Assembly (NCBI GenBank): GCA_965203445.1
Contig: OZ241883.1
Span: 1,088,001 to 1,152,000 of the forward strand
Reading direction: 5' to 3'
DNA from: Candidatus Oxydemutator sp.
Lineage (GTDB): Bacteria; Pseudomonadota; Gammaproteobacteria; Poriferisulfidales; Oxydemutatoraceae
Length of the DNA: 64,000 nucleotides
Position numbers and translations under genes: made by a program
Part shown: positions 42,256-46,616 of the stretch, one piece after another
How positions within the stretch are numbered: position 1 is the first letter of the stretch
How the letters are laid out: each line of letters begins with the position of its first letter
Notes under the pieces: model-generated
The model's database searches: none
What the model saw: the letters and a program-made list of their open reading frames with translations, nothing else
What the model was told of the DNA's origin: nothing

Positions 42256-42609
42256 AAATCGGCGGCTTGTCGCGTGGCCACCCGCGTCGCCGTCGCTTGC
42301 GCCGCTCCTTTTTTCTGCGCCCCCACCGCGCCACAAGCCGTCTTCCCGATACCGTCAGGTGCTCTCCCGCCACCGGGGATGGGGCGCGTCGTCAGCGATT
42401 TTACCGTTCGTCGGATAAATGGTGCCTTTTGTTCCGTTTGTGATTATGCTGCCTGAATGACCGCGGCAGAGTAGCCCTTTTCAACCTGAAAGAGGCTGCC
42501 ATGCAAAACATCATGACAAAACAGACCGACAACCCGCAAGCGAAACAACCGGACGCGCTACCGGTGAACTGGAACGCCCCGGTCACCCGCGGCCAGTTTG
42601 AAACGACCA

Positions 42610-43025
42610 TGGTCGCGATGCGCGCCGATCTGGAAAGCCAGATAGCGGGCCTTCGTTCCGATCTGGAAAGCCAGATAGCGGGCCTTCGTTCCGACCTGGA
42701 AGGACAGATAGCAGGTCTGCGGAGCGATATGGTGGCGATGCGCGCCGACCTGGAAGGACAGACAGCAGGCCTGCGGAGCGACATGGTGGCGATGCGCGCC
42801 GATCTGGCAGGGCAGATAGCAAGCCTTCGTTCCGATCTGGAAAGCCAGGTAGCGAGCTTTCGTTCCGACCTGGAAAGCCAGATAGCGAGCTTTCGTTCCG
42901 ACCTGGAAGGACAGATAGTGAGTCTGCGCGCCGATCTGGCAGGGCAGACAGCGGGCCTTCGTTCCGATCTGGAAGGCCAGATAGCGAGGCTTCGTGCCGA
43001 CATGATGGAGATGCGCGCCGATATT
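42610..43025 (+). repeat. 33-bp (11-aa, RSDLE[S/G]QIA[G/S]L) tandem repeats interspersed with 21-bp (RSDMVAM) units
   Basis: Repeated cgttccgatctggaaagccagatagcgggcctt variants. Confidence 0.9.
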
Positions 43026-43170
43026 GACCGGCGCATCACCGGAGTCGAACTGCGGCTCGACCGCAGAATATCCGATCTCGAATCGCGGATGATCCGCTGG
43101 CAGATCATAACGGGAATTACATACTTTAATCCGTGAAGGATAGTGAAGTAGCTGATTTTATGTAAGATTT

Positions 43171-43179
43171 TGTTATAAT
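43171..43179 (+). promoter_or_regulatory. Extended -10 promoter for tnpB
   Basis: TGTTATAAT 8 nt upstream of ATG 43188. Confidence 0.65.
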
Positions 43180-43187
43180 GTTTGAGA

Positions 43188-44468
43188 ATGAAGGTTCATA
43201 GAACAATTCGATACAGGCTGCATGCCGGCACGCATGCCAAAGCCCGCAAGTTGGCGGGTTTGGCGGGTGCGTGCAGGTTTGTGTGGAACCATTTTGTAGG
43301 AAAGTTACGGGATGAGTATATAGCATATGGAAGATGCAGGCCTTGGTATTTTACATTGGGCAAGCAGTTCACTCTGTTGCGACGTTATTGTGAACCCTGG
43401 TTGCAGGAATACTCGGCCAACATAGTAAAGAGTTCTTTGAAGCCCATAGAAACTGCGTACAAGAAGTTCTATGACAAGAAAGGAGGACTCCCTAGGTTTC
43501 ATGCAAGATATGTACATCATGAGAGTTTCCCTTTGGTATCTGGTTTGTTTCGTATAAGGGGTCGCCATTTGCATATAGCCAAGATAGGCGAGGTGCTGTT
43601 GCTTGGCCATAATCCGTATCCCGATGCAAAGCCCGTGTCGGGCACAGTCAAAAGGGAATGCGGGAATTGGTATGCATACATAGTGTATAAAGTGGAACAG
43701 AAAGAAGTTAAACGTGAATATAATTCAGTAGGCATAGACAGAAATGTAGGTCAAATAACATGCTCGGATGGGATAGTTTATCGAATGCCTGATACTACTC
43801 GATTAGAGGCGCGTCGTCGTCGTTATCAGCGGATGATGGCGAGGCGGAAGTGCGGTAGCAGGAAGCACAAGGTAAAACCCTCTAATCGCTATCTGCGTGC
43901 CAAGCATTCCCATGCCATAACGTGCAGGAAGATAAAGCAAAAGAGGAACAACTGGTGTCATCATGTAAGCAGTGAGATAGCAGAGAATTATTCTGTAGTG
44001 CATTTGGAGGATTTGAATACGAGGGGCATGACGAGGGGTGCCAAGGGCACGGCTACTGCCCCTGGCAGGAATGTGAAGGCCAAGTCGAGCCTGAACAAAG
44101 GAATACTACGTACGAACTGGTATAAATTAGAGCAGTATTTGGGTTACAAAACCCAAGTAAATTATGTATCTGCAAAGAACACGAGTCGTGCTTGCAACAA
44201 GTGCGGATGTATAAACGAGAAGAACAGAGTATCGCAATCAATGTTTGTTTGTGTTGATTGCGGCCATCGAGACAATGCGGACTGGAACGCCGCCAAGAAT
44301 GGCAAAGTTCTGGGCGATGCTACACTGAATTACAAGGCCTCCGGGAATGGGGCTACTGGACGCGGAGGTGGCGGTAAGACCTTGAAGGAATTATTAACCG
44401 ACAAGGCACGGCCTGTGAAGCGTCAAATGGATACTTCAATCTCAGAGAATAATGTTCTCACGGATTAA
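43188..44468 (+). CDS. tnpB: TnpB RNA-guided endonuclease
   Basis: IRYRL...GACRFVWN, GLPRF, RuvC-I VGIDRNV, RuvC-II HLEDL, zinc finger CNKCG/CVDCG, RuvC-III NADWNAAKN. Confidence 0.95.
   Translation: MKVHRTIRYRLHAGTHAKARKLAGLAGACRFVWNHFVGKLRDEYIAYGRCRPWYFTLGKQFTLLRRYCEPWLQEYSANIVKSSLKPIETAYKKFYDKKGGLPRFHARYVHHESFPLVSGLFRIRGRHLHIAKIGEVLLLGHNPYPDAKPVSGTVKRECGNWYAYIVYKVEQKEVKREYNSVGIDRNVGQITCSDGIVYRMPDTTRLEARRRRYQRMMARRKCGSRKHKVKPSNRYLRAKHSHAITCRKIKQKRNNWCHHVSSEIAENYSVVHLEDLNTRGMTRGAKGTATAPGRNVKAKSSLNKGILRTNWYKLEQYLGYKTQVNYVSAKNTSRACNKCGCINEKNRVSQSMFVCVDCGHRDNADWNAAKNGKVLGDATLNYKASGNGATGRGGGGKTLKELLTDKARPVKRQMDTSISENNVLTD
44330..44446 (+). ncRNA. Putative omegaRNA scaffold overlapping the tnpB 3' end, with candidate guide from 44427
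   Basis: Position matches known TnpB omegaRNAs; GACGC/GCGTC and CCTTG/CAAGG pairings; ends ...GAAGCGTCAA. Boundaries inferred. Confidence 0.55.
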
Positions 44469-44780
44469 AGTATATAATTCCCATTATAACGATGGTTACC
44501 CTGACTGGCGTTATCATCGCGGCAGCCGGGTATCTTTCAAGCATTCCGTCCTGAAGGAGAGCACGATGCAGTCACAAAATCCCGATGGCGGGTTTTTCTT
44601 GTTGCGGCTTTGCAGAACAGGAGTGTACGAACGCCTCCTTCGCTCCCTTTCCCGCCGGGAGGGGGGTTATGCGCTGCGCTCTGGTTTGGCACGGGCCGCG
44701 CGGGCCGCGTGGGAGTGTACGGGCGCCGGGGTGCTACAATACCGTGTCGAACCAATTCCGCCGTTGATTTGCACCTCCCC

Positions 44781-46616
44781 ATGTACCAGTCCTACTTCAA
44801 CTTCTCGGAAGACCCGTTCACGATTTCGCCGAATCCTCGGTTTCTGTATTTGAGCGAGCGCCACCGCGAGGCGCTTGCGCATTTGCAGTACGGCGTGCGC
44901 GAGAACAGCGGCTTTATTCTGCTCACCGGCGAGGTCGGCACCGGCAAGACCACCGTGTGGCGCTGTCTTGCCAGCCGGCTGCCGGACGACGTTCATCTGG
45001 CCGTCGTGTTGAACCCGCGCCTGAGCGAGAGCGAGCTGGTCGAGTCCATCTGCGACGAGTTCGGCGTCGCCTGCGAACCGGCGGGCCGTGGCCTCAAGCG
45101 CCTGGTGGACGCGCTCAACCGCCACCTGCTCGCGCTGCACGAGCGTGGCGAGCGCGCGGTGCTGATCGTCGAGGAGGCGCAAAACCTAGACGCGACGCTG
45201 CTCGAACAACTGCGCCTGCTGACCAACCTGGAGACCGACGAAAGCAAACTGTTGCAGATCATCCTGGTGGGCCAGCCCGAGCTGCTGGACAAGATAGACG
45301 GCCCGCAACTGCGCCAGCTGCGCCAGCGCGTCACCGCGCGCTATCACCTGACGTCGCTGGACGCGGACGAAGTGCGCGCCTACGTCGCCCACCGCCTGGA
45401 GATGGTCGGCGGCGGCCTCGGCCTGTTCACCGAGCAGGCGTTGTTGCGCCTGACCCGCGTAAGCGCCGGCATTCCGCGCCTGATCAACCTGATTTGCTCG
45501 CGCGCGCTGCTTGGCTGTTTTTCCGAGGACAAGAGGCAGGTGGACTTGCGCGTCATCGAGCAGGCGGCGCACGAAGTGTTGGGAGAGAAGCCGGAGCAGG
45601 CGGCGTTCGCGTCGCCGCTCTCATCGCCGGCGCCGTTCGGCGTGACGCCGCGCCGGGGACTCGCCGTCGCCGCCGGTCTCGCGTTGCTGGCCGCCGGCAT
45701 CTGGTTGTACGGCGGTTCGTTGTCGGCACCCGATGATCCGCCGCTGCTGGTGCAAGGCGACGGGCCGAAGGCTGCGTCGGAAGTCGCACGGGCGGCCGAG
45801 GAGAAGAGTGTCGGCTTGGTGGCTGCGGCGCCTCCCGTATCGCAAGTGCCCCAATCACCGCCGGTCGCGCATACCCTCTGGGTACAGCGCCCGGGTTCGA
45901 TTACGGCGCCCGCCGCCGGTTCGCTTGCCGCCCCCGCCGCGCCGCCGCGCGCCGAACCCGCCGCCGACTGGCGCGATGGGGTTGCCGCAAAGACGCCCGG
46001 CGAAGCGCCGGACAGCGGCCCGTATCGCGCGTTGTTCGCGTTGTGGGGCGTCGAGCTGCCGCGCGAACTGACCGAATCGCCGTGCGAATACGCGCTGCGC
46101 CACGGGCTGGATTGCTGGCATCGTCGCGGCTCTTTCGACAGCGTCGAGCGCGTCAACCGCCCGGCGTTGCTGAAGATGGTCGCAAGGCGCGGCGGGCAGC
46201 CTTTCTACGCGGTGTTGAACGGCGTCACCGCCGACGGCTTGCTGCAAATGAACGTGGCCGGCGCCGCCATAGCCGTCGCGCGACGGGAATTGGAAGAGGT
46301 GTGGACCGGCGAATACACTTTGTTGTGGCGCCGCCCGTCCGGCTATATAGATACCATCTACCCGGGCGACAAGAACGACACGGTGCGCTGGGTCGCGCGA
46401 CAGCTCGCGGGGCTGATGAACAACCCGCCGCTGGCGCGACATTCTTCGGTGTATTCTCCGGCCCTCGAAAACCACGTGCGCGGTTTTCAGCACCACTGCG
46501 GGCTTTTTGTCGACGGCCTGGTCGGCAAGGAGACGCTGATCCGGCTGAGCGCGCTGGTGCGCAAGGAACCACTTTTGCGCGACGACGCGCCGTCGTGCCG
46601 CTCGCGCCTGGGATAG
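44781..46616 (+). CDS. gspA: ExeA/GspA AAA ATPase with peptidoglycan-binding C-terminus
   Basis: FTISPNPRFLYLSERHREAL, GEVGTGKTT, EEAQNL, LRLLTNLE, VRGFQ...DGLVG. Confidence 0.93.
   Translation: MYQSYFNFSEDPFTISPNPRFLYLSERHREALAHLQYGVRENSGFILLTGEVGTGKTTVWRCLASRLPDDVHLAVVLNPRLSESELVESICDEFGVACEPAGRGLKRLVDALNRHLLALHERGERAVLIVEEAQNLDATLLEQLRLLTNLETDESKLLQIILVGQPELLDKIDGPQLRQLRQRVTARYHLTSLDADEVRAYVAHRLEMVGGGLGLFTEQALLRLTRVSAGIPRLINLICSRALLGCFSEDKRQVDLRVIEQAAHEVLGEKPEQAAFASPLSSPAPFGVTPRRGLAVAAGLALLAAGIWLYGGSLSAPDDPPLLVQGDGPKAASEVARAAEEKSVGLVAAAPPVSQVPQSPPVAHTLWVQRPGSITAPAAGSLAAPAAPPRAEPAADWRDGVAAKTPGEAPDSGPYRALFALWGVELPRELTESPCEYALRHGLDCWHRRGSFDSVERVNRPALLKMVARRGGQPFYAVLNGVTADGLLQMNVAGAAIAVARRELEEVWTGEYTLLWRRPSGYIDTIYPGDKNDTVRWVARQLAGLMNNPPLARHSSVYSPALENHVRGFQHHCGLFVDGLVGKETLIRLSALVRKEPLLRDDAPSCRSRLG

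Follow-up and report, generated by a model that had tools for sequence, protein, structure and literature searches.

A tnpB gene carried by a non-autonomous IS1595-type element whose guide RNA may read through the terminal inverted repeat

Introduction

How does a TnpB nuclease obtain its guide when a terminal inverted repeat stands between its RNA scaffold and the flanking DNA? TnpB is understood as a homing aid for the 'peel-and-paste' IS200/IS605 elements, which excise without a scar and so recreate a site that can be cleaved. Why such an RNA-guided nuclease rides an element of the DDE type, and how its RNA handles a repeat lying between scaffold and flank, has been little explored in bacteria. 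The question is raised by a tnpB-carrying element in a stretch of 64,000 nucleotides from Candidatus Oxydemutator sp. (Gammaproteobacteria; GenBank assembly GCA_965203445.1, contig OZ241883.1, positions 1,088,001 to 1,152,000 of the forward strand), which we call the window and whose positions we use throughout. A preliminary description of this locus proposed that the guide may be fixed inside the element, and offered three options: a constant, element-encoded guide; a guide directed at tnpB-less sibling copies; or an RNA that runs through the repeat and uses the flank, ATTATAAC..., as guide. The proposal of a guide fixed inside the element was not supported by our analysis, and the last of the three options was. 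From the sequences compared here we consider it likely that the guide RNA reads through the right repeat into the flank, that the repeat is built into the scaffold, and that the guide is the DNA to the right of the element.

Results

Anatomy of the element and its partner transposase

The element occupies window positions 43112-44482 (1371 bp) and its sole gene is tnpB. The canonical IS200/IS605 organization, with no terminal inverted repeats and no target duplication, was not found here: the element has 25-bp repeats and 8-bp duplications. Its main parts are the following.

43104..43111, no strand: left copy of the 8-bp target-site duplication (TSD), ATCATAAC, present as a single copy in the uninterrupted site
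43112..43136, plus strand: left terminal inverted repeat (TIR), GGGAATTACATACTTTAATCCGTGA, from a repeat finder, from copy B being identical from 43112 on and from a contig graph break at 43112
43188..44468, plus strand: tnpB, 426 aa, the only gene of the element, from Pfam domains, structure match and kept residues
44458..44482, plus strand: right terminal inverted repeat, from the repeat finder, covariation and a contig graph break at 44482

The repeat finder returned arms at 43107-43136 and 44458-44487 (93% complementary), within which the inverted repeat proper, 43112-43136 and 44458-44482, matches at 24 of 25 positions. The right flank, ATTATAACGATGG, begins at 44483 with the right copy of the duplication, ATTATAAC (44483-44490). 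Inside the right end, the segment ...GTGAAGCGTCAA terminates at 44426 and is separated from the right repeat by the 31 nt ATGGATACTTCAATCTCAGAGAATAATGTTC (44427-44457). These 31 nt, the 25-bp repeats and the two pairings of an omegaRNA-like segment (GACGC/GCGTC and CCTTG/CAAGG) are located where the preliminary description had placed them.

The genome, a single 2.38-Mb contig, holds 13 intact tnpB copies plus fragments. All 13 copies start GGGAAYTATATA and finish TATATAATTCCC, small variants allowed, so that their shared ends can be written GGGAAYTAT... and ...ATAATTCCC, and an 8-bp AT-rich direct repeat borders nearly all of them. Copy B is 99.85% identical to the window copy over 43112-44482 and lies at a different site, within the perfect duplication CTTTTTTG. 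A scan with the 12-nt terminus led to a 2616-bp element (G000:1978350-1980965) that has the same 26-bp repeat at each end and encodes DDE_Tnp_IS1595 (1.3e-43) and Zn_ribbon_IS1595. In related genomes, elements of 1.25-1.4 kb that have a transposase only also belong to this repeat family and lie between perfect 8-bp duplications. The terminal repeats, GGGAATTAT..., and the 8-bp AT-rich duplications are common to the window element and to transposase-bearing IS1595 copies of this genome and its relatives, whereas the window element is without a transposase gene, has an RNA-guided nuclease as cargo and shows an extra RNA structure at its right end. It is a non-autonomous IS1595-type insertion sequence carrying an intact tnpB as sole cargo, a non-autonomous derivative because tnpB fills all but the ends of the 1371 bp; shorter overlapping frames within the element were not compared with any protein family, which bears on the statement that it has no transposase of its own. 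Copies A and B, found at two sites with different duplications, suggest mobilisation in trans by an IS1595 transposase.

A predicted pseudoknot joins the tnpB 3' end to the tip of the right repeat

The tnpB frame crosses the entire omegaRNA-like segment, and its stop codon lies within the right repeat. Three parts of the predicted RNA are found in this region.

44337..44353, plus strand: hairpin P1 (GCCU/GGGC), whose loop GGGAAU (44343-44348) is the 5' strand of the pseudoknot; helix 1, 96% paired with 2 covarying pairs
44359..44424, plus strand: hairpin P2 (GACGC...GCGUC, AGG...CCU, tip CCUUG...CAAGG), the omegaRNA-like segment of the preliminary description; helices 3 and 4, minimum-energy fold z -2.65
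44477..44482, plus strand: pseudoknot 3' strand AUUCCC, the last 6 nt of the right repeat, from covariation with the P1 loop

Some 135 nt before the right end, the loop GGGAAU complements the terminal AUUCCC exactly. Among 85 distinct tails, loop and last 6 nt form 6 of 6 pairs in 65 and 5 of 6 in 14; in some of the six remaining tails the pairing anchor was misplaced. Loop and end change together, as the following combinations illustrate.

Loop:end, number of tails
GGGAAU:AUUCCC, 36
GGGACU:AGUCCC, 7
GGGGAC:GUCCCC, 6
GGGAUU:AAUCCC, 1
GGGAAC:GUUCCC, 1 (copy E of this genome)

Copy E, with GGGAAC:GUUCCC, still has GGGAAT at its left end, and therefore the loop tracks the right end and not the left one.

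Covariation was counted on a MAFFT alignment of 84 distinct tails. The pseudoknot (helix 2) is 95.4% paired, with changes on both sides at 3 of its 6 pairs, and helix 3 (GACGY/GCGUC; in the window GACGC at 44359-44363 with GCGTC at 44420-44424) is 96% paired, with changes on both sides at all 5 pairs. At the tip of P2, CCTTG (44380-44384) pairs with CAAGG (44402-44406), and in sister copies E and F this becomes, by eye, CCCTG/CAGGG. The four-helix structure as a whole is 94.1% paired, against at most 55.6% when it is slid along the alignment. None of 500 shuffles reached the alignment's percentage of pairing, its number of cells changed on both sides or its covariation score; by counts of pairs or of pair types it was unexceptional, 82 and 64 of the 500 reaching these. 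Both pairings of the preliminary description are beyond chance. The pair switches are seen in several separate clades, and pairing survives through G-U and U-G cells, 17 of them in the three covarying pairs, where identity with the left end is lost. As read from the sequences, the amino acid of the loop codon (N, T, D, S, I) shifts in step with the repeat, which points to selection on the RNA and not on the protein.

The same pairing is found in canonical relatives at about 30% protein identity. In nine sequences of this kind, the homologous loop (GGCAU, GGCGU, GGACU) pairs with bases 3-7 from the right end, and one variable end base covaries (AU 4, GC 2, UA 2, UG 1). By homology, the strand that pairs with the P1 loop would be formed by the last bases before the guide, a place taken here by the tip of the inverted repeat. 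The preliminary description had also likened the TCAA at 44423-44426 to right-end motifs of IS605. This likeness was not borne out and we rejected TCAA as an IS605 right end: by eye, it belongs to the P2 3' strand and linker, homologous to canonical ...GAAGCAGGAAC..., while the canonical end ...GGAGGAnGTCAA lies about 90 nt past the homologous helix.

The variable segment is an arm of a hairpin that takes in the inner repeat

Between P2 and the pseudoknot strand, the RNA is predicted to form a further hairpin.

44431..44473, plus strand: hairpin P3, with 5' arm 44431-44448 (the candidate fixed guide of the preliminary description) and 3' arm 44456-44473; fold -14.1 kcal/mol, z -2.25

The 3' arm of P3 takes in, at its end, inner right-repeat sequence and the start of the 12 nt that are conserved at the terminus. 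When the copies of this genome are compared, conservation is lost after ...CGTCAAATGGATAC and returns at these 12 nt, and the stretch between ...GGATAC and the conserved terminus is 15-36 nt long. In every copy, by eye, this stretch has as its 3' part the inner repeat, which complements the left end of the same copy, and a 5' part complementary to that. The inner repeat would pair in this way with a matching sequence just upstream, which explains why the upstream sequence is not the same in all copies.

Nearly all family members fold into a hairpin here, with z below -2 in 55 of 84, followed by a single-stranded 3' tail that mostly measures 6-11 nt. In 67 of the 84 members the hairpin is more stable in the sense than in the antisense strand, the reverse holds in 16 and one is a tie; mean energies are -14.1 and -9.8 kcal/mol, respectively. 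G-U pairs in a transcript would produce such a preference for the sense strand, and a DNA-level palindrome would not. The candidate guide thus appears, from the sequences, to be the 5' arm of a structural hairpin that changes with the repeat. A comparison of this segment among element copies, which the preliminary description had called for, speaks against a constant guide, since its sequence is not the same from one copy to the next and in each it pairs with the repeat of that copy. Covariation and sense-strand bias together would place the terminal repeat within the RNA scaffold, in the manner of Fanzors.

A purine precedes the target duplication

If the guide were taken from the flank, insertions might carry a trace of the target-adjacent motif (TAM) of the nuclease. 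Ends were called for 123 elements; 67 with a duplication matching at at least 7 of 8 positions and a repeat with at least 16 matches were kept, and these were deduplicated to 60. The control consisted of 21 clean transposase-only insertions (TSD at least 7/8, TIR at least 18/26) of the same repeat family, from relatives and from this genome. The counts were as follows.

Base just 5' of the duplication (-1) a purine: tnpB elements 59/60 (G 43, A 16, T 1, C 0); transposase-only 12/21
Base just 3' of the duplication (+9, the mirror position) a pyrimidine: tnpB elements 26/60; transposase-only 8/21
First base of the duplication G: tnpB elements 0/60
Last base of the duplication C (mirror): tnpB elements 7/60

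The purine at -1 gives a binomial probability of 1e-16 and, against the transposase-only insertions, a Fisher probability of 1e-5. The base that precedes it varies by sub-clade, by eye 'TA' vs 'NG'. The ends of the element are near-identical and therefore a symmetric transposase complex should give no orientation-specific flank bias. The bias is placed exactly where a 5' TAM would be, and we infer that it may be the footprint of one. An asymmetric signal 5' of the duplication argues that the duplication more likely belongs to the guide. Its first base is never G, and the boundary between scaffold and guide could be shifted by a base or so. The base before the element's own right junction is C (...UUCCC), which would spare the element from cleavage. 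Two features of the window follow from this reading.

43099..43103, plus strand: candidate TAM GGCAG, left flank just 5' of the target duplication, from the -1 purine bias
44483..44502, plus strand: predicted guide, the right duplication copy ATTATAAC plus flank, from the pseudoknot position and the -1 purine; a length of about 16-20 nt is assumed

The predicted guide of the window copy begins AUUAUAACGAUGG....

An uninterrupted allele of the target site

The empty site could be recovered from public data. A contig of public run X2 joins 43106 to 44486 (...GCAGATC followed directly by ATAACGATGG...), with the host gene uninterrupted and a single ATCATAAC. In the contig graph of the same run, breaks are found at 43112 and 44482 toward the flanks of copy B, and a further one at 44434 toward copies F and E. 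Left and right duplication copies differ at the third base (43106 vs 44485), ATCATAAC against ATTATAAC; the empty allele has C, as the left copy does.

The interrupted host gene (42501-43136 and 44491-44555) is made of 33-nt (11-aa) tandem repeats, DLESQIAGLRS-like, and its last 21 or so codons, a hydrophobic tail, resume past the element. Its uninterrupted form is a low-depth contig in run X2 that is about 94% like the window there. A search for orthologs of the host gene in relatives matched the downstream gene alone and gave no empty site from sister genomes, and a metagenome scan with the right-flank 25-mer gave 0 matches.

Alternative readings of the right end

The two options that keep the guide inside the element predict a target for the segment after the scaffold. 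In one, about 20 nt following ...GGAUAC would be freed by 3' trimming and aim TnpB at a phage or a rival element. The loss of copy-to-copy conservation falls exactly after GGATAC, where the contig graph also branches (44434), and such relatives of TnpB exist, the ancestor of Cas12k being called a fixed-guide TnpB in an abstract (10.1101/2025.08.27.672191). When the 20-mer at 44427-44446 was searched as the preliminary description had proposed, the genome yielded its two self copies only, at up to 3 mismatches, and the viral contigs yielded 0 matches. The 20-mer directly after GGATAC (44435-44454) does have an exact match in four IMG/VR contigs, all from one phage tail module (L204-L207). This match (L207 6390-6409) lies within a tape-measure gene (phrog_339, 2e-78), extends to 21 nt with the next base (window 44435-44455), is in the same reading frame (SISENNV) and is preceded by G, a purine. 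The equivalent 20-mers of six other copies had 0 matches in the viral collection, and the viral contig, at 45-49% G+C vs 63.6% in the host, shares no DNA with the host. One match in seven queries is unremarkable at a rough estimate of 0.1-0.2 per query, and the phage match is probably due to chance. Against a fixed guide stand also the covariation of the segment with each copy's own repeat, its variable distance (15-36 nt) to the conserved terminus, and a pseudoknot that requires the last 6 nt of the element, beyond the segment; by eye, moreover, TTCAATC of the 20-mer is the arm homologous to TCTAATC of copy H, and the purine of the flank would be left unexplained. An internal guide with a conserved target elsewhere, as in fixed-guide TnpBs of the TldR or Cas12k-ancestor type, was not found among the 16-mers, internal or flanking, of the 13 copies: against the genome these gave self matches only at 0 mismatches, and matches at 2-3 mismatches were scattered and without common context. 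We therefore regard a real fixed guide as improbable. Less probable still is its narrower form, in which, in copies A and B, the hairpin arm doubles after 3' trimming as a fixed anti-phage guide (the 21 nt after ...GGAUAC, against the tape-measure gene) alongside a flank-guided role. The remaining internal option, in which the segment guides cleavage and conversion of tnpB-less sibling elements with the same repeats, seems to us hardly credible. The genome does have tnpB-less derivatives and solo ends with the same terminus, and, by eye, the inner left repeat and the 5' arm of P3 look alike in direct orientation; yet neither the post-scaffold 16-mer of any copy nor the 20-mer at 44427-44446 has a non-self match in the genome at up to 3 mismatches (in 16 for the former), and the arm is only about 9-12/20 identical by eye to left ends, with the mismatches at the scaffold-proximal end.

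A different kind of explanation dispenses with flank-guided targeting altogether. The hairpin and the complementarity between loop and end would then serve transposition or regulation at the DNA level, for example by blocking read-in transcription, and the purine at -1 would reflect target choice by the transposase. The transposase-bearing 2.6-kb element also has, by eye, a 7-bp hairpin overlapping the inner repeat at its transposase-proximal end, and the transposase-only control set is small and drawn from other IS variants. We hold this explanation to be unlikely, though it deserves to be kept in mind. It is at odds with the sense-strand preference in 67 of 84 hairpins, with the G-U cells in the loop/end helix and with the loop of copy E, which tracks the right end. 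The same pseudoknot is present in canonical IS605-type relatives without inverted repeats, and near-identical ends served by a symmetric transposase complex would not be expected to bias one flank. Finally, intact tnpB persists in 13 copies here and across 17 of 41 related genomes.

The TnpB protein

The 426-aa product has the domains HTH_OrfB_IS605 (PF12323, 3.5e-6) and Cas12f1-like_TNB (PF07282, 2.3e-12), both passing cut-offs, and OrfB_IS605 (PF01385) at 30.4 bits, just below its cut-off of 30.5 (4.8e-7). Among solved structures it comes closest to the TnpB entries 8bf8/8ex9/8exa and 8h1j (E 1.4e-17). Residues E274, D365, C336, C339 and C358 are invariant in 20 relatives and D184 and C355 nearly so; we take E274, D365, D184 and the zinc-ribbon cysteines to be the RuvC-type motif residues of TnpB. 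The three-domain set, the catalytic acidic residues with CxxC...CxxC and a structured RNA with a pseudoknot over the 3' end of the gene all place the protein among TnpBs.

Distribution and further observations

TnpB relatives are present in 17 of 41 related genomes and in many further public genomes, with record titles that mention Porisulfidus, Arenicellales, Poriferihabitaceae, Caldilineaceae, Rhodothermales and others. So long as protein identity is at least about 34%, the elements retain 8-bp duplications and inverted repeats of the GGGRMYTAT type. Near 30% identity (Desulfovibrio, Malikia, Nonomuraea and other records) they are of the canonical kind: they lack inverted repeats, and a G+C-rich hairpin followed by ...GGAGGAnGTCAA forms the right end, beyond which flanks diverge. 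Elements with tnpB in IS1595 were seen in metagenome-assembled genomes of Gammaproteobacteria, Chloroflexota (Caldilineaceae), Rhodothermales and Alphaproteobacteria (loci L083-L141), and many of the carriers have sponge-associated names in their record titles. This distribution suggests horizontal spread within one habitat.

The G+C content of 43112-44482 is about 42-50% across the stretch and about 46% overall, against 63.6% for the genome, and this foreign base composition persists even in copies diverged to about 60% protein identity. By our own count, the exact 12-nt terminus occurs 25 times in this genome of 64% G+C. Miniature or deleted derivatives of the same repeat family that lack tnpB were seen at G000:C1:113341-113503, 757576-757755 and 247602-248387, together with many solitary termini. 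The left end of copy H (G000:C1:1432385-1432440) is rearranged or doubled, GGGAATTATACTTTAAATCCGTAGGGAGATTATATAGAC..., and its duplication is degenerate (6/8). The 2616-bp element is the genome's only full-length copy of the IS1595 transposase, a 146-residue fragment being present at 512990-513433; it carries as passenger gene an N6/N4 DNA methylase fused to an HNH nuclease (436 aa), and its 7-bp hairpin overlaps the inner repeat beside the transposase start.

A search of public sequencing runs for RNA containing this locus listed none, and gave only two runs, both of one sample and kept as contigs. An Rfam search of 42800-44800 gave nothing at gathering score. A consensus scan of the right end found no plus-strand promoter and no terminator at P3; the sequence TTGTTATAAT upstream of tnpB, spotted by eye, was missed by the consensus promoter scan.

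Discussion

The option that the RNA runs through the repeat and takes ATTATAAC... as its guide is supported by the covariation of the pseudoknot, the sense-strand bias of P3 and the purine at -1, and is the one that we favour. The anatomy of the element, its partner transposase, the covariation of the two RNA features, the bias of the flank and the empty site are observations; from them we infer RNA production, the position of the RNA 3' end, cleavage and a homing benefit. A DDE transposase of the IS1595 type, encoded elsewhere, would move the element in trans. Transcription from the tnpB 3' end would run through the right repeat into the flank to give the omegaRNA, which would fold, in order, into P1 (loop GGGAAU), P2, a short linker and P3, the last taking in the inner repeat. 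The terminal AUUCCC would close the pseudoknot with the P1 loop directly before the guide, as in ordinary TnpB RNAs. The next 16-20 nt or so (AUUAUAACGAUGGUUACC... in the window copy) would be the guide, its start coinciding, or nearly so, with the first base of the duplicated target. TnpB would cut uninterrupted copies of the site, on a sister chromosome or an incoming allele, that bear a purine-ending motif as TAM, here GGCAG, and the insertion would be spread or retained when the break is repaired from the occupied copy.

Several points weigh against this reading. Only one base of the TAM-like signal is strongly constrained. Studied TnpBs have TAMs of 4-5 nt, beside which a one-base signal is weak. 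Of the elements whose ends were called, 56 of 123 were removed before the flank count for poor duplications or repeats, kinship among the insertions inflates the flank statistics, and the control set is small, 8 of its 21 insertions coming from one IS in one genome. The 84 tails are likewise related, so that the shuffle controls overstate significance, and the loop motif equals the left end in most copies, a DNA-level cause of covariation being not fully excluded. The antisense hairpin of the window copy itself is slightly stabler than the sense one (-16.3 vs -14.1 kcal/mol), and therefore the sense-strand argument rests on the family count. The right copy of the duplication differs from the empty allele at the third base, and against that allele the present guide would therefore have a mismatch in its seed. 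There is also the internal 20-mer that matches a phage gene exactly. Finally, a cut-and-paste DDE element leaves a break anyway, so that the benefit of homing is not obvious, a point that we take from a 2026 review (PMC13565253).

Association of tnpB with DDE transposases has been described before. Altae-Tran et al. (2023; PMC10691335) report tnpB within DDE-transposase elements with inverted ends, as well as solo copies bounded by the same ends; the main text of that paper names IS630 and suggests a related way of obtaining guides, and the review PMC13565253 lists ISL2, IS630 and IS1031 as TnpB-associated DDE types. The window element resembles the elements of PMC10691335, as its main text presents them, in that tnpB lies inside an inverted-repeat element, solo copies share the transposase-bearing ends, and the tnpB 3' end is less than 250 bp from the element end. 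The term 'IS1595' occurs 0 times in that main text, and one of its six DDE branches, given in supplementary lists, may be the window family. A literature search, judged from titles and the starts of abstracts, returned no association of TnpB with IS1595. Neither a hairpin-plus-pseudoknot solution nor a TAM signal in the flank is described in the passages of PMC10691335 that we compared.

A further likeness is to the Fanzors of transposons with TIRs and TSDs, in which the repeat is predicted to belong to the scaffold of the RNA, with small-RNA reads that go about 15 nt beyond the duplication (Yoon et al. 2023; PMC10711439). The Fanzor1 and Fanzor2* guide RNAs (reRNAs) of that text and the window element have in common a non-autonomous, nuclease-only TIR/TSD element, a repeat predicted as scaffold and a guide from the flank, which is predicted here. 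They differ in that the Fanzor elements in that text are eukaryotic or viral and have a short, fixed duplication counted as scaffold and as part of the TAM. In the window family the duplication is 8 bp and variable, and the flank signal lies 5' of it, which makes the duplication more likely to be guide. The pseudoknot, which the same text tests in an IS607 TnpB (position -3 to about -130) and gives as absent in Fanzor1 (PMC10711439), is kept in the window family. Compared with the canonical TnpB-omegaRNA of IS200/IS605 (ISDra2 type, solved structures 8bf8/8exa), the window tnpB has the same domain set, intact catalytic residues and an RNA over the tnpB 3' end, and like the IS200/IS605 relatives at about 30% identity it keeps a loop-to-3'-end pseudoknot beside the guide. 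These canonical elements have a Y1 transposase and no inverted repeats or duplication, and their right end consists of the TnpA hairpin and ...GTCAA; in the window element this entire 3' module is replaced by the IS1595 repeat. The idea of the repeat as scaffold is already known from Fanzors (PMC10711439). In the portions of the texts that we compared, we did not find the association with IS1595, the division of the repeat between a covarying hairpin and a pseudoknot strand in a bacterial TnpB, or a TAM-like footprint before a variable 8-bp duplication.

The window family offers a concrete RNA design, a predicted TAM position before a variable 8-bp duplication, and dozens of natural insertions in small genomes from several phyla. 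Were the fixed anti-phage guide real, a transposon-borne TnpB would, besides working with a flank guide, be a nuclease against phage. If the flank bias is indeed the footprint of a TAM, RNA-guided homing would shape which insertions of a DDE element persist. The homing model would then extend beyond IS605 and IS607, and this family would be a bacterial counterpart to the adaptation of Fanzors to eukaryotic transposons.

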